Positions 53,200 through 64,000 of a stretch of DNA of 64,000 nt are shown piece by piece. A model generated the notes under the pieces. The model did no database searches and was not told the DNA's origin. It saw only the letters and a program-made list of their open reading frames with translations. The DNA is from Candidatus Dojkabacteria bacterium (lineage in GTDB: Bacteria > Patescibacteriota > Dojkabacteria > SC72). Both the position numbers and the translations under genes were made by a program. Position 1 is the first letter of the stretch. Each line of letters opens with the position of its first letter. The stretch is taken from positions 9,940 through 73,939 of the forward strand of contig JAXGRK010000002.1 of assembly GCA_040765985.1 (NCBI GenBank), written 5' to 3'.

Positions 53200-54795
53200 T
53201 TAACTTCTATCTATAAACTGATCTCTAGATGTAGGATCTGGTTTCTCAGTATTAATCAATAAAGGATACCATATACCATCTAAGGAATTTAATAGCTCTA
53301 ACCATTTATACACTAAACTACGATATGAAATATGTCCTCCCCTTCTAACCCTCAAATTAATTGTATATTGCAAATCATCAAAAGAGCCATAGAAAGAGTA
53401 CCTTGTACTATGTGCATGAGGTAGTAAGTACCTAGTATACTCTTTAGACATCTCATCTGACATAAATTGGGTAGATACAACTCTCCACTTTTTAATCATC
53501 TCATATGTTTCGGTTAAACACTTTTCATACTCATCTCTTAAATCCTGTAATTTAGGTATTTCAAGATAGTTGCATAGGAAGAAACAATCTCTACTCTCTC
53601 TATTCAATTCATTATCAATATCTATTTCATCATGGAATAGTGGAATGAACCTCTCTAAACTCCTATGCCTATTTAAATCTTTAAGAGTACCCAGTGTAGC
53701 CATACCCTCTATCTTAATTGCTCCTGATTGACCTAAGTTACCCAATAGGTTGTGATGGTTATGATTTTCAAAAAGTATCTCGCCTAATCTCTGCTCATCC
53801 TCTTGGTCAAACTCCAATTCATATTCACTACCCAAGGGATTAACTAGCAGTTCGTAATGAGTAATTAAATCTTCTACCGCATTAGTATTGTAATCTACAG
53901 TACATGAATCACATTCACATCCCATATTTTCATACTCTCTTTGGTTAGATACCATATTACTTACTTCCTCTAATATCCCTTTAGTTGAATTTTTTCTACA
54001 ACAGTTTGCATCTGTATGTCTAATTAATCCATCTGCTTCTTTAATATACTCTGCCATCTTAATATCTGACTCTCCTAAAAGATTGTAAAGAAGTTTACCC
54101 ACCTCTTTTTCTACTACACTACTACTTGCATTAAAGTATGATATTAACTCAGACCAGTTTCTAGCAGACATTACTGCTGCCATACTGGTTTGTAATCCGT
54201 AAGGAAGTAGATATCTAGCTGTATCAAAGCTTCTAGCTTGTAAAACAGATTTCTCTTCTTTAATATCTTCATTAATATCAAAATACTCTTTTAATACCTC
54301 CTTTGTTTCTTTAAGTAATCTCCTGTAATCTCCCATCTGTTTTAATACAATACTGTCATACTCTTTTCTAATTCCTTCATCCAAACATATCTCTTTTGAT
54401 ATTTTTATGTACTGAGGATTCTCAAAATTCTGATATCTAGTAGATCTCTCTTGACCAGATATTACAGAGTTTGTATAAAAGATCTTCATAGCAGTAAACA
54501 TGGGTATATTCTCAATACAAACAAAAAGGTCTGCCATATCACCTACAGATTTATGACCGTATCCATGAAATATTGATTCTAATCTTTGTGCAGCATCAGT
54601 ATTGTTATCTATAATTTCCTTTGCAATATCAGTAATTGAATCTGCAGACCTACTATACCTAGCACCTAAGTATGCATTAATTGAGGGTTGTTTCTGTTTA
54701 GGGTTTTGTAAAAGAGTATGTGCTTTAAAACTATTCCATTCTGATTCAGATATTAAACTAGCTATCTGTAAATCCTTTCTAAAGGTTCCTTTCAT
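53200..54795 (-). CDS. thyX: FAD-dependent thymidylate synthase ThyX, long form with two ThyX-like halves
   Basis: 531 aa. First half GHKSVGDMADLFVCIENIP...ISGQERSTRY matches the ThyX HxS...RHR..S....S.RY signature. Second half has NRHRSLERFIPL and HAHSTRYSFYGS. About twice the usual ThyX length. Confidence 0.65.
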   Translation of the reverse strand: MKGTFRKDLQIASLISESEWNSFKAHTLLQNPKQKQPSINAYLGARYSRSADSITDIAKEIIDNNTDAAQRLESIFHGYGHKSVGDMADLFVCIENIPMFTAMKIFYTNSVISGQERSTRYQNFENPQYIKISKEICLDEGIRKEYDSIVLKQMGDYRRLLKETKEVLKEYFDINEDIKEEKSVLQARSFDTARYLLPYGLQTSMAAVMSARNWSELISYFNASSSVVEKEVGKLLYNLLGESDIKMAEYIKEADGLIRHTDANCCRKNSTKGILEEVSNMVSNQREYENMGCECDSCTVDYNTNAVEDLITHYELLVNPLGSEYELEFDQEDEQRLGEILFENHNHHNLLGNLGQSGAIKIEGMATLGTLKDLNRHRSLERFIPLFHDEIDIDNELNRESRDCFFLCNYLEIPKLQDLRDEYEKCLTETYEMIKKWRVVSTQFMSDEMSKEYTRYLLPHAHSTRYSFYGSFDDLQYTINLRVRRGGHISYRSLVYKWLELLNSLDGIWYPLLINTEKPDPTSRDQFIDRS

Positions 54796-54805
54796 TAAGT
54801 ATTGA

Positions 54806-56027
54806 TTACAATTTATCTATTCCTGGTATAGGGAAATCTTTAGTAAACTCTTTTACTTCCTCTTTAATTAATTTAATATCTTTTTCTGATTTACTCTTTA
54901 ATGCTCTATCTATATACTCAGCTACTCTTTCCATATCACTCTCTTTCATACCTCTTGTTGTAATAGCGGGTGTACCAATTCTAACTCCCGATGGGTCCCA
55001 AGGTTTTCTTTCATCAAAGGGTATACTGTTTTTGTTCAAAGTAATATTAACACTCTCTAAAATATCAGATACCTCCTTACCACTCATATTTATACTTTTA
55101 ACAGTATCTACTAAAAATAGATGGTTATCTGTACCCCAGATACAATGGTATATCCTTTTTGAATTAAAGAATTAGCCAACGCCTTCGCATTTAATATAAT
55201 CTGTTTAATATCTTTAAACTCATTACTCTTTGCTTCCGTAGCGCAACCGCTATACCAGCAGTTGTATGGTTATGTGGACCCCCTTGACCAGAGAAATACC
55301 GCTTTATCTATTACTTCACCATACTCTCTTACAAAGAATCATTGCCCCTCTTGGCCCTCTTAAGGTTTTGTGTGTAGTAGTAGTCACTACATCTGCAATA
55401 CCCACAGGAAGAGATACTGATCTGCTACAATTAACCCTGCTACATGTGCAATGTCTGCAACAAATATAGCTGCAACTTCATCAGCTATCTTTCTGAACTC
55501 TTTCAATCAATTATTCTTGAATAGGCACTAAATCCACTCCATATTAATTTAGGTCTGTGTTTCTGATCTTTCGCACTTCATCATAATCAATATATCATCT
55601 TTATTTACCCGTAACTTACTGAGTTAAAATATTTACCACTAATTGATACTTAAAACCATGAGTAAGATGGCCACCAGCTGATAGACCCATACCCATTGTT
55701 CTGTCACTGATTTAAAAATGCTAAATGTACTGCTAAGTTAGCAGGCGAACCAGAATATGGTTGTACATTTACATGCTCTGCTTTAAATACCTCTTTAGCC
55801 CTAGATATACACTCCTTTTCAATCTCATCAATATATTCATTACCACCATAGTATCTTTTATCTGGATATCCCTCAGAGTATTTATTTGTAAGAATACTTC
55901 CCATTGCTCTAAGGACATTTTCACTTACATAGTTTTCAGAGGCAATTAACTCTATACCCTCTTTTTGTCTTTTAGCTTCATCCTTTATATATTTAAAAAC
56001 AATATCCTCTTTATACATTCTTTTTGT
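54806..56027 (-). CDS. glyA: Serine hydroxymethyltransferase, central third broken by at least 4-6 frame changes
   Basis: The N-terminal ORF ([37 protein letters not shown]...) and C-terminal ORF ([29 protein letters not shown]) are intact. Between them [94 protein letters not shown] and [10 protein letters not shown] are all present but distributed over three frames. Probable ATG at 56027, overlapping the folD stop. Confidence 0.85.
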
Positions 56028-56855
56028 AAGCATCAATTAAATTACTAAGTAAACATACAATTGTCATTGGTCCAACACCACCTGGAACAGGAGTAATGTA
56101 TGAAACAGTATCTTTAACACTTTCAAAATTAACATCTCCTACCAATTTCCCTTCCTCATTTTTATTCGTCCCTACATCTATTACAACAGCACCCTCTTTT
56201 ATATATTCCCTATCTATATATTCTGGTTTCCTATACCTACAATTAATATATCAGCCATATTACAACTGCTTTAAGATTTGGGGTATGAGAGTGACATACT
56301 GTTACTGTAGCATTTTCATTTTGTAGTAGTGCTGCTACTGGTAATCCAACAATATCCTTTCCAATTACAACTGCTCTTTTCCCATCTATTTCTATTCTGT
56401 ACTCTTCTTAGTAACTCTAATATTCCTTTTGCTGTGGCTGGAGCTATAGCTGATGGATCATTTTTAAAAAGTTTACCTAAATTAACAGATGTTAAACCAT
56501 CTACATCTTTTAATGGAGATATTTTTTCTAAAATATTACTCTCGTTAATTTGCTTTGGTAGTGGTAATTGAACCATTACTCCATCTACATTAGTATCTTT
56601 ATTTAAATCTTCTACCAACTGTATTAACTCACTTTCTTGTACACTTTCTTCAAAGGTATGTACATTACACTGTATTCCTAACTCTTGTGCTTTTTTAGAT
56701 TTCATTTGTACATATTTTTGACTACCGAAATCATTACCTACAAGCAATATATCTAGTTGAGGAACTCTTTTATCTAAATTAAGATACTCCTGTATATCCT
56801 TTTGTATCTTTTCAGATATTTTTAATGCTGTTTGTTTACCATCTAATATTGTCAT
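56020..56855 (-). CDS. folD: Bifunctional methylenetetrahydrofolate dehydrogenase/cyclohydrolase, frame broken at least 3 times
   Basis: The track ORF 56316..56855 is the N-terminal half up to ...[10 protein letters not shown]. Downstream, [64 protein letters not shown] and [53 protein letters not shown]... lie in successive frames. Confidence 0.85.
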
Positions 56856-56911
56856 ATCTTTTAATATGTAAAAATATATTTATGTATTTTACAGGATATT
56901 TGAATATTTTT

Positions 56912-57569
56912 TTACTCTGTATCCCTAATTGCTACTACAACAGTTCTTTTAATATTTGCACCAGCAGGCCAACATGTCATTAAGGTAAGAGTGTCTTGGT
57001 CTAGATATTCACCTAAATACTGTATATCTTTTGGGTCTACAATCTTAACTTCTAGTACTTTGTAAGTATATATATCTCCTTGGTAGCTTACATATAATCA
57101 TCTTTTTCTAATTCATTTAGTAGTAGAAGTATACATTGTACTTCCTTCTTTCATAGAAGTTTACAGCAGAGTGTGCAAACAGAAATACATTTCCTTCTTC
57201 ATTTGGTAGTGCACTTCCTTTAGCGTGTGCTACACCGTATATTAGTGCTGTGCTATACCTTTCCTCATTGTATGGATCTACATTTTTTAATACTTTGGCA
57301 TTAGCTTGTATTTTAGGTATGTAGAGTCCAAAATCACTGTTTACAAACACTATCTCTGTATCTTTTTCAATCTCAGTAGTAATCTCTTCACCTTTAGGGG
57401 TTACTTCTACTTTAATTTCTTCTACTGGTTTAGGAGAGAATTTGTAATCAAAGTATGACCATATTAATGGTTGATATGTAAAAAAAAGAATAACTAATCC
57501 TACAAGAAGTAGTAGGATACCCAGATATTTTGAGTATCCTACTTTTGATTTACTTTTTTCTTCTGACAT
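56912..57569 (-). CDS. Sortase (transpeptidase), frame broken twice near 57060-57116
   Basis: The track ORF 57117..57584 has an N-terminal TM, beta strands and the catalytic His region GVAHAKGSALPNEEGNVFLFAHS. After two frame changes the sequence continues ...LNELEKDDY / LYVSYQGDIYTYKVLEVKIVDPKDIQYLGEYLDQDTLTLMTCWPAGANIKRTVVVAIRDTE*, with the TLxTC catalytic Cys and the conserved Arg. The start is probably the second Met (57569). Confidence 0.8.
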
Positions 57570-60500
57570 ATGAGTATCCTGCACTTCCTAATACTACCAC
57601 TGCTGCTGCAATTATTACATACTTATATTTATTCCAGAAAGTTTCGTCTGTATCATCTTCTTCTCCATCTTTATCCTCTCCATTCTCTTCATCTTCATCT
57701 CCTTTTACCTCTCCGTTGTCTTCTTCCTCTTGGTCAGGATTCTCTTCACCTTCCTCGCCCGCAGTAGTCTCCTCTCCTGCTACCTCTCCTGTTTCTCCAT
57801 TAACAGTAACTGTTGTTGCAGTTGTTCCTTGTATTACTGTTACAATATTATCTGTAACAAAGCTAGAGAAGTTTCCTAAATCATCTAATGCTCTAATTGC
57901 ATAGTAGTACTCTTTAGTACAGTCTAATGGGTCATCATCTGCATATGTTACAGCTGTGTTTGGCCCAACTGTTAATGTATCAATTAATGTAGAAGCGTTA
58001 GCTGTAAATGGTTGTGTGCTTGATCTAAATATTTCTACTTTAGATGTTCTACCATCATTTGCTGTTTTAAATGAAAGTGTATATTTACATGTACCTTCTG
58101 TTTTTGCATAGTTTATTACTGGTAGTGGTTTCTCAAGTACGACCTCCACTGAAACAGTACTAGATATGTTTTCATCACCACCAGCCTTTGCTTTTACATA
58201 GAAATCATAGGTACCACTTGTAGTAACTAATGCTGGGGTAACTTCACAGTTACCACTGTTAGTAGCATATGTACCAAAGAGAATACCGTCTTTATAACAC
58301 TCTACTGTTACTGTTCTATTTTGTAAATCCAATGCTACAAATCCTATCTTGAAAGTATTCTTATTAGTAGGAGTTACTGGTTGCTCAATTCTTACATCAA
58401 TATCTGCTACCGATGCATATGTAGGTAGGGGTTTTAGTATAAAGAACATACTAAATAGGACTACTCCTGCAATAAATAGGTTTTTAATTCTTTTCTTTGG
58501 ATTAAATACTAATAGAATGAATCCTAATATCATCGATATTAATGCTCCTAATGTTATATATGTATCTGCACCTGTTCTAGGTAGAGTAATCGCTGCACCT
58601 AACACTTCTCCTTCTTCTATTTCAGGATCGTTCTCTACTTTAACTTGAGTACCTACGAAGTATTTACCCACAATACCATCGTTTATCTCAAAGCCCGAAC
58701 CTTCAGATATCGCAAGTAGGTTTGATCCCATTATTCCTATTCCTTTTGCATAGGCAAGGTCAGGATATTTACCTGCATCAACAAGATCTGTTACCAAAGC
58801 TTTATACGTTATTGTAACTATTTCACCCACAAGTATCTTTCCTAATTCCCACTTTCCAGGTGAGGAATACTTCACTGCAGAGATATCTAAAATTCCTCTT
58901 ACATTTGATATTGCTCTAAATGTACCTGATTGGGGTATGAAGCCTTCAGGAGGGAGATCTATGAGGATTACATTGTTTACTGAACTCTTTTCTGCTCTAA
59001 CTTTTATTGTATATGTTACTGTATCACCAATTGCTAGAGTATTTGGCCAACTATCATTTGTTTTACTTATATACAATTCTGATTTTTGAACATTACCTAT
59101 GTAACAGGACCTATTATCTCCAGAAGAAACTTCTAAGTTATATGCATTATTATTGTAAATACCATTTTCTAAAATAGGTGATGATATTGCTCTATCAACT
59201 TCAGCTCCATTAGAACAGTATATGTCGGTAACACCCATAACTGGACATCCTGGCCTATTATCCCAATTCATATCGATACTCCCTCTCGAGTTAAATAAGT
59301 TACAGTCACTAAACTCTGGACATGTTTTCTGTTCTCCAAATGATACTAGATTACTATACCCATTAACTTCACATGCCCATTGAGCACATGTTTGAGCATC
59401 ACCACAACCATTCCATCCAGAACAAGCACCATGATGCCCATATGCTTCTCTAGGAGAGGTTATCAAGACTCCTTCTCTGTCATCCTCACAATATATTCCA
59501 GTTTGATCCCAACCATCTTTCATACTCTCACTTAGAACATATGAATCAGGAAGTAAACTGAACTTCGTACTTCCGTCAATATCTGTAATCTGACTATATC
59601 CCTCTTCTTCAATCTTGGATATATTTATTTCCCAATCGGATAGGAAAGATTCTCCTTCATCAAGTACACCATTAGCATTTAGGTCATTAAACTTGTAAAC
59701 AGTAATACTACCTTTTTGAAGATTTCCAAACTTGTATGTTGGTCCCTCAACTGCATTTACTTGGTCAAGAAAACCTTTAGGATTTTCATCTGGCAAAGTT
59801 ATAGTATGACAATTATTTCCCTCATTTATAGGGTATGTCTGAACCCAACCATCTTGTAATTCCTCACAAACGGTATATTCACCAAGTTTTAAATCTTCAA
59901 ACCAATACCATCCTAGATGATCTTCATTGTCAGTTAACATATATCTCTCACCTTCATCAAATTGACTATTTTCATTTTCATCAATGAATATCTTCCAATT
60001 ACCCAACAAAGGTTCTAATTCACACTGTTCCATTGCTCTGTTTTGAGCTAAAGATCGGACATCATCATACATTTCTTCTCCTATACAGTTTCTCTCTCCA
60101 TCTCCATTTATATCGCTCCATTTATACCCATGTATATCTCCTGTAGATTGAGTGTTAAATGCAACACAGTAATATGTTTGACCATATTCTGGTCTATTTA
60201 ACCATTCCCAGTTGTCATAGTTTGCAACATCTTTGTCACAGTAAAATTCTGCAGAGAAATCATCTGAGTTATTATTGTTGTTATATGTAAATGGTATGTA
60301 GTTTTCTTGGAGTACTTCTCTTAATTCAATTCTACTTCCCTTAAGATTATTAATCTTAGCTATTGCTATTCCTTCTTCACCAACTGCACTAAATGTATTC
60401 CAATCCTCACCTCCATATCCTATATATTCATCACCGGGGTTTCCTGCTCCTTGATATCCCCATTCAAATTCCCAGGTTGGTTCTAACCTACAGTGTCCTT

Positions 60501-63500
60501 CACTTTCATCAACCCAGTTCTGTGCTGTATTAGATGTAATCTTAGCTGGTCCTTTTCTTCCCCAATTTGGTAAGTAAGACTCATTATCACAAACTACTTT
60601 CATTGCCTCTATCGTTACAGGCTGGTTCACTCTATTTTTAATAGTGAAATTCTCTTCCATCTCATCTACTACAACAGGAGTTCCTTTACCACTAATATCA
60701 ATCCATCCTTCCTTTAGATATTCATCTAATATGTACTCTCCATATGGGATAGCTTCTAGAGTAGTACATCCATTCCTTTCAGTAGAACCTTTTGCCCATT
60801 CATTAACTTTGTAAACTTCAAATCTAAAATCTTTGTTTACATTATCAGCATAGTAGTCATCATATATTGAGACATTAATAGGACCGCCTAAATGGTCATA
60901 TACATATGTATATTCGTGTGAGCTATTGTATGCTCCCCAGTTAACAGAAGAACCATTTATCAAAGCCATTAAACCTTTACTTGGTAAATCTAATCCACTT
61001 ACCCAACCACCAGTTCCGTATGGAATACCTATTGGCCTAAAGGAGTATCCCGCATCTGCAATCATTTGAGAATTTCCATATCTATATGTACCACTTACTT
61101 TGATTAAGTATGTACCTGCTGGTAAATTAGAACTGTTTGATCCACTGTTATTACTTACATTTAGAGCTGTTGGGCCATCTACTTTGTCAGATGCTAATAC
61201 CATATCCCAACCAGAAAGGGATTTATTGTTATGGTTCTTTTTACATATCTTTACATCTGAGCCTTGGTAGTTTCCAAACTGTACTCCTACTTTGTCCTCT
61301 GAGGCTCCTAATACTACTGTATGACAGAAGGAATTATCTTGTGGATTTTGTACTCCTGAATATGGTTCTGTTTGATACCAACCCTCTTGAGGTTGTTCAC
61401 ATACATAGTATGTACCAGGTAAGAGATTTTCAAATCTGTATTGACCTTTTTCTACATTACCAACATCAGTAGTATCATCTCCTGTTTTCATTGTACCTAA
61501 TACATCCCATTCTTGATTGTAGAGATTGATTGTCCAGTTATCTAATTTATTCTTATTAATTTTTTCCTCCTTATCAAAATTTCCATTAATATTTACATCG
61601 TAATATTTTCTACCCTGTATAGAGCTGTATGGATATTGATTAACTACTAGAAGAGTTCTATCAGCTCTTGATGTAGTTAAAAGGATATCTCCATCTCCTA
61701 TTGTATTTCTCTGTCCATCGTTTGAAGGGTCTTCATCAAAGAGTTGTCCAGAGTAATCAATAGCTTGGTTTAAATTAAGATTTGAATCATTATACCTTGG
61801 AATATTCCATGGACTTGAATATGTTTCTTGACTGTAATAGAAGTGCCCTATTGGTAAATCAGAATATGTTTTACAGTAAAGATCGTTACCTTCACTTGAA
61901 GAATATACATCTGTATTTAAGTCTAAAGGTGTACTATAACTTGTTTCTGGAAGTACTCCTACTGGAGCACCTTGAGAGGTTGTAACATCTAACCCTTTTA
62001 CAGAGAATTCATAGCCTGGTAGTTCAGAACCGTCCGTTATCTTTCCATCAGGTGTAAGAGCTACTTTACATACTCTAATTGATCCAGCCTTGACTTTGAC
62101 AGTTTCAGTATCTGTATTGTTTTCAATATCTCTATCTCCACCTAAATACCATTCATCGTAGTTCCAAGATTCACCCTCTATATCATATACCTCTGCGATA
62201 TTAGTAACTTCAGATCCACCTGATTCTGTTACTTTGTAATCACATGTAAATTTCCATGTTTCATTTGAATCTATTTTACCATCCATATTTATATCCCCTG
62301 AGTCATATTCAACTGGAGTACATAGGTCATCTTTAACCATAGGTGTTACATTTGCAGGTCCCCCATTTTTAACTTCATATTCGTAAGTTATTGTCTCTCC
62401 TTTATATGCTACACTAGGTGCTATCTTATCTATAGCTAAATCAAATGTTATTACATTTATTTGAGACCAATCTGGATATCTTTGTCCCGTTGTATAATCA
62501 ATACATTCATACCCTTGAATATATCCCTCAGGTAAATCTTTCTCACAGAATTTATAACTTCCCTCACTTAACCATAGGTTAATTGGTAAGGATTCTGTAA
62601 TTGTTTCTGTTCCGAGAACCTCATCTCCTTTTTTAATATCTACTGTAAACTCAGTCTCAGGATCAGAGTAATCAATTTTATCTCCATCCCAGTATAGTAA
62701 TACATCCTTTCTTAATGTAAATGGATATAGGGTAAACTCATCACTATCTGTTGTTTCTTCATCATAGAAAGAACCTGTTGCAGCAGCTTCGTTTGTGAAA
62801 GAATCTGGGAATGTCCATAATATGTTTGTAGTACATTGATATTTCCATTCTTCTCCATTTTCCAAAATATTATCTCCATCATCACCAGATTGGTAAACTA
62901 CAGGATTGCACTTGTCATCAACTACAGAGATATTTGATAATGGGACATTACCTTTGTTTGTAACTTCATATTCATATGTTATATTTTCTCCATTTATTGC
63001 ATAATCAGGACCACTCTTTTCTACTTCTATTTCAGGATTAGCTTCTACATTCCAAGCTACACAGTAATATGTTTCTCCATTTTCTATTCCATCTATTCTA
63101 TCTAAATTATCGTAATTTAATACATCAGTATGACAGTATATTTCAGCTGTTACATTATTACTGTTATTTCCGCCCTCTATATTGTAAGTAAATGGAATGT
63201 AATCAGAATTCCATACTTCTCTCATCCATATAGAATTAAATCCTTCAATATCTTTATTTGCTATTTCTATTGTAGCTAAACCGTTAGTATCAGTAGCTCC
63301 AAATGTATGCCATCTAGTATCTGTTGTCTCTCCTGTGTTATCTCCTGGATTCATACTAGAAGGGCCTTCATTTCCCCATTGGAAAGAGTGCCCTTGCTTA
63401 AAGCTACAACTTGAATGATTCTTAACCCAATTTAGTGCAGTATTCTCATCTATGTTGTCACCTCCATTACCCCAATTAGGTAATTCTAATTCATTAGTAC

Positions 63501-64000
63501 ACTCAATCTTATGTGCATTAATTGTAATTGGTTTAAGTTCAATGTTTGCGAAATTAACAATCTCTTTCTCTGCAGGTGTCACTGTAAAGTTCTGACATAT
63601 ATCAGAGACATTTTCCCAACCACTTTGTAAGGTTTCCATTACAGAGTAATCACCAGGTATTATTGAATTAAAAGTAATATCTCCTGAGCTATTAGTAACT
63701 CCTTGCATGTAAGGATCTCCTTGACAATCATTACCATTGTACAAAGACATTTCCCAACCACTTAGATTTGGTTCTGCTGGAATTTGTTCTTTATCTTCAT
63801 CTAAATCATGATATTTATGTGCAGTAACTGATCCAAATATTTCATTTGTATATATACATTTTACTGTCTCACCAGCTTCAACATTGAATGTTGTAGTTCC
63901 TGTAGATATGTCATATGTTGAGTCGATATCATCACAAGCAATATCTGTTAATCTATATCCTGATGTAGAGAATGGACTCTCAGATACAGTATATGTTCCA
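57550..64000 (-). CDS. Giant cell-surface protein (>2,150 aa; N-terminus beyond the window end) with DUF11-like and Cna-B/SdrD-B-like repeat domains, an LPRTG sortase sorting signal about 290 aa before the C-terminus, then a second signal-peptide-like segment, Fn3-like region, acidic linker and C-terminal TM
   Basis: Continuous 6.2 kb frame. The frame stays open upstream of the track Met to position 64000. Beta-sandwich repeat motifs (GPDYAINGENITYEYEVTNKGN; DINGDG...GEYTVCEELQDGWVQTYP). LPRTG (nt about 58570-58584) is followed by a hydrophobic stretch and NPKKRIK. Then comes IKNLFIAGVVLFSMFFILKPLPTYA|SVAD (signal-peptide-like), and the protein ends ...YVIIAAAVVVLGSAGYSYVRRKK*. Confidence 0.8.
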   Translation of the reverse strand, partial: GTYTVSESPFSTSGYRLTDIACDDIDSTYDISTGTTTFNVEAGETVKCIYTNEIFGSVTAHKYHDLDEDKEQIPAEPNLSGWEMSLYNGNDCQGDPYMQGVTNSSGDITFNSIIPGDYSVMETLQSGWENVSDICQNFTVTPAEKEIVNFANIELKPITINAHKIECTNELELPNWGNGGDNIDENTALNWVKNHSSCSFKQGHSFQWGNEGPSSMNPGDNTGETTDTRWHTFGATDTNGLATIEIANKDIEGFNSIWMREVWNSDYIPFTYNIEGGNNSNNVTAEIYCHTDVLNYDNLDRIDGIENGETYYCVAWNVEANPEIEVEKSGPDYAINGENITYEYEVTNKGNVPLSNISVVDDKCNPVVYQSGDDGDNILENGEEWKYQCTTNILWTFPDSFTNEAAATGSFYDEETTDSDEFTLYPFTLRKDVLLYWDGDKIDYSDPETEFTVDIKKGDEVLGTETITESLPINLWLSEGSYKFCEKDLPEGYIQGYECIDYTTGQRYPDWSQINVITFDLAIDKIAPSVAYKGETITYEYEVKNGGPANVTPMVKDDLCTPVEYDSGDINMDGKIDSNETWKFTCDYKVTESGGSEVTNIAEVYDIEGESWNYDEWYLGGDRDIENNTDTETVKVKAGSIRVCKVALTPDGKITDGSELPGYEFSVKGLDVTTSQGAPVGVLPETSYSTPLDLNTDVYSSSEGNDLYCKTYSDLPIGHFYYSQETYSSPWNIPRYNDSNLNLNQAIDYSGQLFDEDPSNDGQRNTIGDGDILLTTSRADRTLLVVNQYPYSSIQGRKYYDVNINGNFDKEEKINKNKLDNWTINLYNQEWDVLGTMKTGDDTTDVGNVEKGQYRFENLLPGTYYVCEQPQEGWYQTEPYSGVQNPQDNSFCHTVVLGASEDKVGVQFGNYQGSDVKICKKNHNNKSLSGWDMVLASDKVDGPTALNVSNNSGSNSSNLPAGTYLIKVSGTYRYGNSQMIADAGYSFRPIGIPYGTGGWVSGLDLPSKGLMALINGSSVNWGAYNSSHEYTYVYDHLGGPINVSIYDDYYADNVNKDFRFEVYKVNEWAKGSTERNGCTTLEAIPYGEYILDEYLKEGWIDISGKGTPVVVDEMEENFTIKNRVNQPVTIEAMKVVCDNESYLPNWGRKGPAKITSNTAQNWVDESEGHCRLEPTWEFEWGYQGAGNPGDEYIGYGGEDWNTFSAVGEEGIAIAKINNLKGSRIELREVLQENYIPFTYNNNNNSDDFSAEFYCDKDVANYDNWEWLNRPEYGQTYYCVAFNTQSTGDIHGYKWSDINGDGERNCIGEEMYDDVRSLAQNRAMEQCELEPLLGNWKIFIDENENSQFDEGERYMLTDNEDHLGWYWFEDLKLGEYTVCEELQDGWVQTYPINEGNNCHTITLPDENPKGFLDQVNAVEGPTYKFGNLQKGSITVYKFNDLNANGVLDEGESFLSDWEINISKIEEEGYSQITDIDGSTKFSLLPDSYVLSESMKDGWDQTGIYCEDDREGVLITSPREAYGHHGACSGWNGCGDAQTCAQWACEVNGYSNLVSFGEQKTCPEFSDCNLFNSRGSIDMNWDNRPGCPVMGVTDIYCSNGAEVDRAISSPILENGIYNNNAYNLEVSSGDNRSCYIGNVQKSELYISKTNDSWPNTLAIGDTVTYTIKVRAEKSSVNNVILIDLPPEGFIPQSGTFRAISNVRGILDISAVKYSSPGKWELGKILVGEIVTITYKALVTDLVDAGKYPDLAYAKGIGIMGSNLLAISEGSGFEINDGIVGKYFVGTQVKVENDPEIEEGEVLGAAITLPRTGADTYITLGALISMILGFILLVFNPKKRIKNLFIAGVVLFSMFFILKPLPTYASVADIDVRIEQPVTPTNKNTFKIGFVALDLQNRTVTVECYKDGILFGTYATNSGNCEVTPALVTTSGTYDFYVKAKAGGDENISSTVSVEVVLEKPLPVINYAKTEGTCKYTLSFKTANDGRTSKVEIFRSSTQPFTANASTLIDTLTVGPNTAVTYADDDPLDCTKEYYYAIRALDDLGNFSSFVTDNIVTVIQGTTATTVTVNGETGEVAGEETTAGEEGEENPDQEEEDNGEVKGDEDEENGEDKDGEEDDTDETFWNKYKYVIIAAAVVVLGSAGYSYVRRKK

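Follow-up and report, generated by a model that had tools for sequence, protein, structure and literature searches.

A giant Dojkabacteria surface protein with an internal sortase signal is probably a natural fusion of an LPXTG adhesin with a membrane-anchored Fn3 protein

We analysed a 64,000-nucleotide stretch of the genome of a Candidatus Dojkabacteria bacterium (contig JAXGRK010000002.1, positions 9,940 to 73,939; hereafter, the window), in which a giant minus-strand open reading frame (ORF) encodes a surface protein whose LPRTG sortase motif lies hundreds of residues before its end and is followed by two hydrophobic segments (TM1 and TM2, for transmembrane), the second of them resembling a signal peptide. 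We considered this ORF as a natural in-frame fusion of two neighbouring genes, whose product would be processed into an LPXTG adhesin (A) and a small Fn3 protein (B), and we give this reading a probability of roughly 0.75. A, B and the sortase encoded directly downstream would together form a three-gene cassette of Patescibacteria, in which A is the adhesin, B consists of a signal peptide, two Fn3 domains, an acidic stalk and a membrane anchor, and the third component is the sortase.

The ORF enters at the window end (63999) and continues with no internal stop down to a stop codon at 57550-57552. An earlier note, made from the letters of this stretch alone, had described a surface protein of more than 2,150 aa with Cna-B/SdrD-B-like and DUF11-like repeats that runs past the window end; the 2149 aa within the window do contain SpaA (SpaA/prealbumin-like), SdrD_B, DUF7507 and DUF11 domains of Pfam, and the 5′ end is indeed outside. 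A relative of 2635 aa (P0016; P numbers denote database proteins) has an N-terminal signal peptide. The last DUF11 region, just upstream of the sorting signal, is conserved family-wide, and the profile of the family matched it in both fused and split forms.

Among all the ORFs of at least 50 aa in the six frames of the window, LPRTG is the only LPxTG motif with a hydrophobic stretch behind it. It starts 344 residues from the end of the ORF, with 339 residues after the motif in the same frame; the earlier note had correctly recognised LPRTG, the hydrophobic stretch and NPKKRIK as an internal rather than C-terminal signal, but had placed it about 290 residues before the end. Behind the motif the order is ADTYITLGALISMILGFILLVF, NPKKRIKN, LFIAGVVLFSMFFILKPLPTYA and then SVADIDVR, and the predicted sortase-substrate peptides of the signal are EVLGAAITLPRTGAD and GEVLGAAITLPRTGADTY. 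The match to Gram_pos_anchor (PF00746), at aa 1802-1837, scores 19.9 bits, against a Pfam cut-off of 20. The segment IKNLFIAGVVLFSMFFILKPLPTYA, followed by SV, that had been read as a fresh signal peptide is present as described after NPKKRIK. In fact, TM2 has all the parts of a signal peptide, that is, the basic KKRIK ahead of it, a hydrophobic h-region (LFIAGVVLFSMFFIL) and a c-region (KPLPTYA), with a predicted signal peptidase I site between A1862 and S1863. As a side observation, Gly1826 in the middle of TM1 (58522-58524) is 94% conserved and the aligned position of TM2, Ser1850 (58450-58452), is Gly, Ser or Ala in 127 of 161 sequences; packing of a TM1-TM2 hairpin via small residues is possible.

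A first question is whether the continuous frame is real. An assembly or sequencing artefact would mean that there are really two genes, an adhesin ending in NPKKKN and a membrane protein of 280-300 aa, merged by a one-base indel at 58480-58500. This had been the first alternative of the earlier note, and its arithmetic is correct, since a shift by one base in the A-rich stretch does put a stop (after ...KN) right behind the sorting signal; moreover, a tract rich in indels (54.8-57.12 kb) is only about 1.3 kb away, and split gene pairs do occur in other lineages. To set against this, we searched with the last 510 aa, which span the junction, and obtained 12 relatives, eight of which cover the junction (P0001, P0003-P0008 and P0012). 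All eight are uninterrupted, at 36-69% identity, through LPxTG, TM segment, basic loop, TM2 (ending in xYA, xFA or xIA), Fn3 pair, acidic linker, TM segment and RRKK, and one of them (P0012) is complete at 721 aa with its own N-terminal signal peptide. At the DNA level the junctions of the window and of three related loci (L001, L002 and L003; L numbers denote loci) are unlike each other, yet each keeps frame 0 open and the remaining two closed. Likewise, every Dojkabacteria/WS6 relative with a readable junction is continuous with different junction DNA, including L004 and L005, which at 81% identity are the nearest to the window.

The remaining evidence points in the same direction. Neither an ATG, GTG or TTG nor a Shine-Dalgarno sequence for a separate B gene, both of which had been proposed as a check, is present at the junction in the window, the aligned codon being ATT; and the 6.4-kb ORF has no other interruption, which indicates that the error tract does not reach it. 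A second assembly of the same genome did not turn up: metagenome contigs contain no exact copy of a 32-mer taken at the junction, and no recorded protein is identical to the ThyX of the window. Comparison with orthologous loci had been set beforehand as the test able to refute the two-gene view, and it returned the same frame over different junction DNA, with no base missing. Since the orthologues have the internal LPXTG in a continuous frame, we consider the two-gene sequencing artefact as refuted and its residual probability as very small, while the other alternative of the earlier note, a single precursor with an internal sortase site, is the one borne out. The two-gene idea thus fails as an artefact and holds as evolutionary history, given the split gene pairs of Daviesbacteria, Gottesmanbacteria, Collierbacteria and related lineages described below. 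One apparent exception, a stand-alone B protein (P0011) starting with MILG inside TM1, was rejected as a gene-calling artefact, because its locus (L002) has frameshifts upstream and an LPKTG in the same frame; two more proteins (P0009 and P0010) start at the same MILG residue, and their source contigs are short (1.4-2.2 kb).

With a HMMER profile of the module we obtained 1761 matches at E < = 1e-3 among 1.84 billion cluster representatives, 736 of them at E < 1e-30. The best 150 matches are proteins of 460-3200 aa, nearly all with the whole module at the C-terminus. An [L/M]PxTG followed by hydrophobic segments was found in 149 of 160 database proteins, nearly always 330-400 residues before the end, the variants including LPATG (82), LPSTG (16) and LPNTG (12). 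In the HMM-anchored alignment, which comprises 161 sequences, mostly representatives of clusters at 50% identity, 153 rows have the fused form.

We also scanned one genome per GTDB species with ectodomain motif patterns, a procedure that is unbiased as to fusion. Of the 52 loci that it gave, 34 have the fused form and 10 the split form, and contig ends or Ns interrupt the other 8; a sortase homologue lies directly downstream, usually overlapping, in 49 of the 52. The named lineages are all Patescibacteria (Dojkabacteria/WS6, Shapirobacteria, Daviesbacteria, Gottesmanbacteria, Collierbacteria and Parcubacteria), and the window sequence clusters with Dojkabacteria/WS6. The gene order adhesin, sortase, folD, glyA, thyX, dcd is common to the window, L002 and L003. 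Separately, we noted that a cassette of the type found in the candidate phyla radiation (CPR) also occurs on contigs titled 'uncultured Gammaproteobacteria', 'Pseudomonadales' and, in several cases, 'Candidatus Saccharibacteria' (L023, L024, L027, L028, L034, L037, L040, L041, L049-L052 and L054); their sequences group with those of Shapirobacteria, Gottesmanbacteria or Dojkabacteria, and the titles look like placeholders or mis-assignments.

The 10 split loci belong to Daviesbacteria (L022), Gottesmanbacteria (L030 and L031) and Collierbacteria (L039), together with L026-L029, L034 and L043. In these loci the adhesin ends 32-38 aa past LPxTG, with tails such as RKKYD, RRKYV or RRKK directly before the stop, and the ATG of gene B overlaps the adhesin stop (e.g. 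AGGAAAAAAT-ATGA), with a Shine-Dalgarno-like GGAG within the Arg/Lys codons. The product of the split gene B begins with a canonical signal peptide (e.g. MTKLLAAFFSLILAVFIFTNQVLA, cut before AD, then ADLTAKIETPKSPT), followed by Fn3 pair, stalk and anchor. TM2 of the window is thus homologous to a genuine N-terminal signal peptide. The basic loop of the fused protein is at once the basic tail of the adhesin and the n-region of the B signal peptide of the split orthologues. In 71 of the 153 fused forms the loop or the beginning of TM2 still contains an in-frame Met, and at the position of Ile1838 of the window (ATT, 58486-58488) some relatives, e.g. P0019 and P0027, have Met; Ile1838 is presumed to be the relic of the start codon of B, lost in the window lineage. 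In a neighbour-joining tree of the ectodomain two fused loci (L021 and L044) nest among the split forms, a position that suggests more than one fusion or fission event. Judged on these sequences, the fused arrangement is a recurrent natural gene fusion.

The kept Met residues could also be taken as a sign that internal translation initiation makes B, either additionally or instead. We consider this extremely improbable for the window, in which the corresponding codon is Ile with no Shine-Dalgarno sequence upstream, and the next Met (M1851) lies within the h-region, so that a start there would leave too short a signal peptide.

Turning to processing, L, P, T and G of LPxTG are each conserved in 93-96% of the 161 sequences, and VLG at positions -6 to -4 from the motif in 91-95%. 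At the end of TM2, position -1 (the column of A1862) is Ala in 145 of 161 (90%), position -3 is Ala, Val, Thr, Ser, Ile or Leu in 148 of 161 (92%), position -2 is bulky (Tyr, Leu, Phe or His) and position -6 is Pro, Gly, Ser or Ala. In the window 53 aa (G1810 to A1862) separate the predicted sortase cut from the predicted signal peptidase cut; the family range is 46-67 aa, and the loop contains a median of 4 Lys/Arg. Conservation of both LPxTG and the signal peptidase I c-region in the fused proteins argues for double processing, by sortase and by signal peptidase I.

Two readings with less processing have to be weighed here. Precisely, the sortase cut may be the only one, with TM2 remaining as an uncleaved signal-anchor and the remnant being a three-TM protein that begins at G1810 and bears the Fn3 pair between TM2 and TM3. 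The topology would fit equally, internal signal sequences behind another TM segment are not always reachable by signal peptidase, and cleavage by this enzyme is deduced here from sequence. However, the full signal peptidase I c-region (-1, -3 and the helix breaker at -6) is kept in 153 divergent fused sequences, and the counterpart of TM2 in the split genes is a regular signal peptide at the N-terminus; hence we rate this reading as unlikely. Alternatively, no processing may occur at all, the whole protein being a three-TM membrane adhesin with a vestigial LPRTG. The broken sortase ORF of the window and the Pfam anchor match marginally under its cut-off would agree with it, but LPxTG and the preceding VLG are 91-96% conserved, the sortase gene overlaps the 3′ end in 49 of the 52 loci, the split orthologues have a canonical C-terminal signal and the sortase breaks resemble assembly errors (see below), which together make it quite improbable.

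Under the double processing that we favour, the predicted topology is self-consistent: TM1 would run from outside to inside, the loop would be cytoplasmic, TM2 would run from inside to outside, the Fn3 pair would be outside, TM3 would run from outside to inside and the tail would be cytoplasmic. The N-terminal signal peptide, encoded outside the window, would start the export of the adhesin by Sec, the sorting signal would halt it at TM1 and the KKRIK loop would remain in the cytoplasm, after which TM2, the former signal peptide of B, would restart export, now of the Fn3 pair, and TM3 would hold B in the membrane. The sortase would then cut between LPRT and G and pass the adhesin to an acceptor, presumably a wall precursor, thereby parting A from B, and signal peptidase I would cut after TYA, between A1862 and S1863, leaving mature B and a hairpin of about 53 aa with two TM segments. 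Because A and B would come out of such processing just as they do from the split genes, a change of one base where stop and start overlap would be tolerated either way, and the arrangement may have flipped more than once.

The part downstream of the junction had been described as a second, small, membrane-anchored Fn3-like protein with an acidic linker, and the structural analysis agrees. An AlphaFold2 model of aa 1794-2149, made with 11 homologues, has a two-helix hairpin (TM1 and TM2), two beta-sandwiches with pLDDT of about 90, some 60 aa of acidic, disordered chain and a C-terminal helix. With Foldseek the best matches in the PDB are tandem Fn3 pairs (cytokine-receptor modules and the CbhA Fn3; E from 4e-7 to 1e-5). 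No Pfam or NCBIfam family passed its threshold for B, although the search was opened up to E < = 1, the best being Big_13 (E 0.03) and MXAN_2561_fam (26 bits vs 150), and no protease family matched the downstream part in Pfam, NCBIfam or the fold search, which gave the two Fn3 domains instead. The two conserved Cys pairs, present in 100% and about 92% of the sequences, respectively, fit an extracytoplasmic domain. A pilin-like role of B, with a lysine as acceptor, was rejected, since none of the Lys positions of the B module is as much as 80% conserved in the 161 sequences.

Of 155 proteins, 116 have motifs of the type [E/D/Q][V/I/L]xG in the stalk, 11-45 aa before the membrane anchor, where shuffled sequences would lead one to expect 17; the window has GEVAGEE and GEVKGDE, most relatives (P0013-P0160 set) have EVLG. 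These motifs resemble the EVLG ahead of LPxTG in the adhesin. That the EVxG-type motifs common to stalk and adhesin are a docking site for the sortase is an attractive idea, and a possible one. More generally, B may putatively act as an accessory or partner of the sortase/adhesin system.

As for the sortase, its ATG at 57569 gives a 20-nt overlap with the end of the giant ORF. The earlier note had seen a frameshifted yet recognisable sortase directly downstream, with the Cys of TLxTC, a His and an Arg, and after repair of the two frame changes the protein does match PF04203 (2e-22, 79.7 bits vs a cut-off of 26.6) and TIGR01076 (50.8 bits vs 39.35), as the intact orthologues of L005 and L022 also do. 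The classification by HMM that had been proposed goes no further than these general models: for the window protein and the intact orthologues all the class-specific NCBIfam sortase models were below cut-off, class C being the best (59-72 bits vs 160) and classes D, E and GN far below. The best matches in the PDB are class C sortases (E about 1e-7). No second sortase, LPXTG substrate or B homologue was found elsewhere in the window.

We compared the frames of the window genes with those of the intact orthologues of L003 by ungapped tblastn, the changes in the sortase being read from the sequence. We counted at least 10 frame changes for glyA, at least 4 for folD and 2 for the sortase, all on minus-strand genes and all within 54.8-57.12 kb (54806-57123), against none in the adjoining thyX (1.6 kb, 53200-54795) and none in the giant ORF; the tract ends about 1.3 kb short of the LPRTG/TM2 junction. 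The in-frame pieces of glyA, folD and the sortase are 68-100% identical in aa to the L003 orthologues (75-80% for the sortase pieces), which is not below the 81% of the intact thyX. Indels with no excess of substitutions, together with the sharp borders of the tract, indicate that the assembly was left unpolished or was gap-filled here, and not that there are three pseudogenes, and we consider it most likely, on the strength of this pattern, that the sortase is not a pseudogene. Frameshifts in folD, adhesin and sortase were also observed in L002 (GCA_040767225.1).

Regarding signal peptidase, a gene for an S26 signal peptidase I was observed upstream of the fused adhesin in L001 (28-717, two genes upstream; L045 is the same contig) and in L046 (1140-1865). 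In all the other loci no signal peptidase gene was found within 5 kb. With such a gene near only two distinct loci, it is not a constant part of the cassette.

Several points weigh against a processed natural fusion, at least in part. The list of the best 150 matches is skewed to full-length, hence fused, matches, and the unbiased scan counted 34 fused and 10 split loci. The tree, made by neighbour joining, is a rough one. Topology, acceptor and the two cleavages are inferred rather than observed. Common descent, and not continued use, could account in part for the conserved AxA-type site, an objection that is eased by the composition of the set, in which most sequences represent clusters at < = 50% identity. 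B varies at its mature N-terminus and has no assignable function. Finally, the sortase falls outside every curated class, so that no specificity can be read from its class, and it is interrupted in the window, though probably by assembly error.

We then compared the arrangement with known systems. Like the canonical LPXTG sorting signal (PF00746), it has LPxTG, hydrophobic segment, basic residues and an adjacent sortase, and the split orthologues end in this very way; unlike it, the signal is internal, with a complete second protein of 339 residues behind, 153 of the 161 relatives being fused, and an extra VLG at -6 to -4 equals LPxTG in conservation. Literature searches on internal LPXTG, sortase polyproteins and CPR sortase substrates returned no description of this architecture, the only precedent being the streptococcal Zmp proteins. 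In these proteins (IgA1 protease and others) LPXTG is followed by two TM segments, the second of which was proposed as a second signal peptide (PMC3518915). The likeness consists in a non-C-terminal LPXTG followed by two TM segments, the second with a signal-peptidase-type site. In Zmp, however, the motif follows a short leader close to the N-terminus and precedes the large functional protein, whereas in the present family the giant adhesin comes first and the small Fn3 membrane protein last, the motif of the window protein being at aa 1806 or further on. The two families are unrelated in sequence, the present one has no HExxH protease and belongs to Patescibacteria, and its split orthologues document an origin by gene fusion.

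Small membrane proteins genetically coupled to a sortase and its substrate are known in actinobacterial SafA and in the signal-peptidase-like SipA/LepA of streptococcal pilus loci (PMC9282373, PMC4049620). B is like them in this coupling and unlike them in sequence and fold, being a tandem Fn3 ectodomain on an acidic stalk that is often fused to the substrate. Sortase is enriched in CPR, in which it was found in more than half of the genomes and in nearly all Microgenomates (PMC6744442).

A further analogy is in logic only. The proposed precursor would be threaded back and forth as a single product and then cut into separate membrane or surface proteins, as are viral envelope polyproteins; it would differ from them in using bacterial Sec and in owing one of its cuts to a transpeptidase, the sortase, which would attach the upstream product as well. 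In flaviviruses and alphaviruses, envelope polyproteins have alternating stop-transfer and signal sequences and are cut by signal peptidase on the outer face of the membrane. In this light we advance, as a speculation that is rather doubtful, that the fused precursor may be a bacterial surface 'polyprotein' of wall-poor epibiotic CPR, with the sortase as its maturation enzyme. B, made 1:1 in cis, would then be the dedicated membrane dock or covalent acceptor of the adhesin, the EVxG common to both would be the sortase-binding site, and a protein stalk would hold the adhesin instead of peptidoglycan, or ahead of it in time.

For annotation, an LPXTG hundreds of residues before the C-terminus of a giant CPR protein should be neither 'corrected' into two genes nor dismissed. 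The family is uncurated, with at least 736 representative clusters at 50% identity and a downstream module that has no Pfam or NCBIfam model. A sortase site may also serve to part two proteins that a single ORF encodes, and fused and split forms, interconverting by a one-base change, are a natural experiment. The tandem-Fn3 membrane protein is a conserved third component of the sortase cassette and, since CPR depend on cell-to-cell attachment, a candidate for study; the predicted cleavage products are directly testable in metaproteomes. The coordinates of the features are collected in the table.

Table. Features of the giant surface-protein gene and of the adjacent sortase gene, with positions in the window
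Feature	Position	Strand	Evidence or remark
3′ part of giant surface-protein gene	57550..63999	minus	2149 codons + stop; 5′ end outside window
Last DUF11 (CLIPPER-type) domain of adhesin part, aa 1643-1740	58780..59073	minus	PF01345, 1.4e-14
VLG, aa 1799-1801, within extended motif EVLGAxxxLPxTG	58597..58605	minus	Family alignment
LPRTG sortase motif, aa 1806-1810	58570..58584	minus	Predicted cut between T1809 and G1810
TM1, aa 1813-1832, hydrophobic stop-transfer segment of sorting signal	58504..58563	minus	Predicted helix
Basic, predicted cytoplasmic loop NPKKRIKN, aa 1833-1840	58480..58503	minus	Alignment with split orthologues
TM2, retained signal peptide, aa 1841-1862	58414..58479	minus	Homologous to N-terminal signal peptide in split genes
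First Fn3-like beta-sandwich of B, aa 1867-1953	58141..58401	minus	AlphaFold2 model, Foldseek; invariant pair Cys1901/Cys1918
Second Fn3-like beta-sandwich of B, aa 1962-2057	57829..58116	minus	AlphaFold2 model, Foldseek; Cys1971/Cys2027 about 92% conserved
Disordered acidic stalk of B, aa 2058-2120	57640..57828	minus	AlphaFold2 model; motifs GEVAGEE, GEVKGDE
C-terminal membrane anchor TM3 and basic tail YVRRKK, aa 2121-2149	57553..57639	minus	AlphaFold2 model
Sortase gene	56912..57569	minus	N-terminal TM; His (FLFAHS), Cys (TLMTC) and Arg present; frame changes twice between 57097 and 57123

Two minor observations concern the rest of the window. ThyX (PF02511; 53200-54795, minus strand) is 531 aa long, as is its L003 counterpart at 81% identity. 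The usual length of ThyX is about half of this, and the conservation of the 531-aa length in L003 suggests that this ThyX probably arose by duplication or fusion. Genes change from the minus to the plus strand at about 30 kb and return to the minus strand at about 50 kb, and the GC skew changes in the same places, from about -0.35 before 30 kb to near 0 at 30-50 kb and about -0.25 after.

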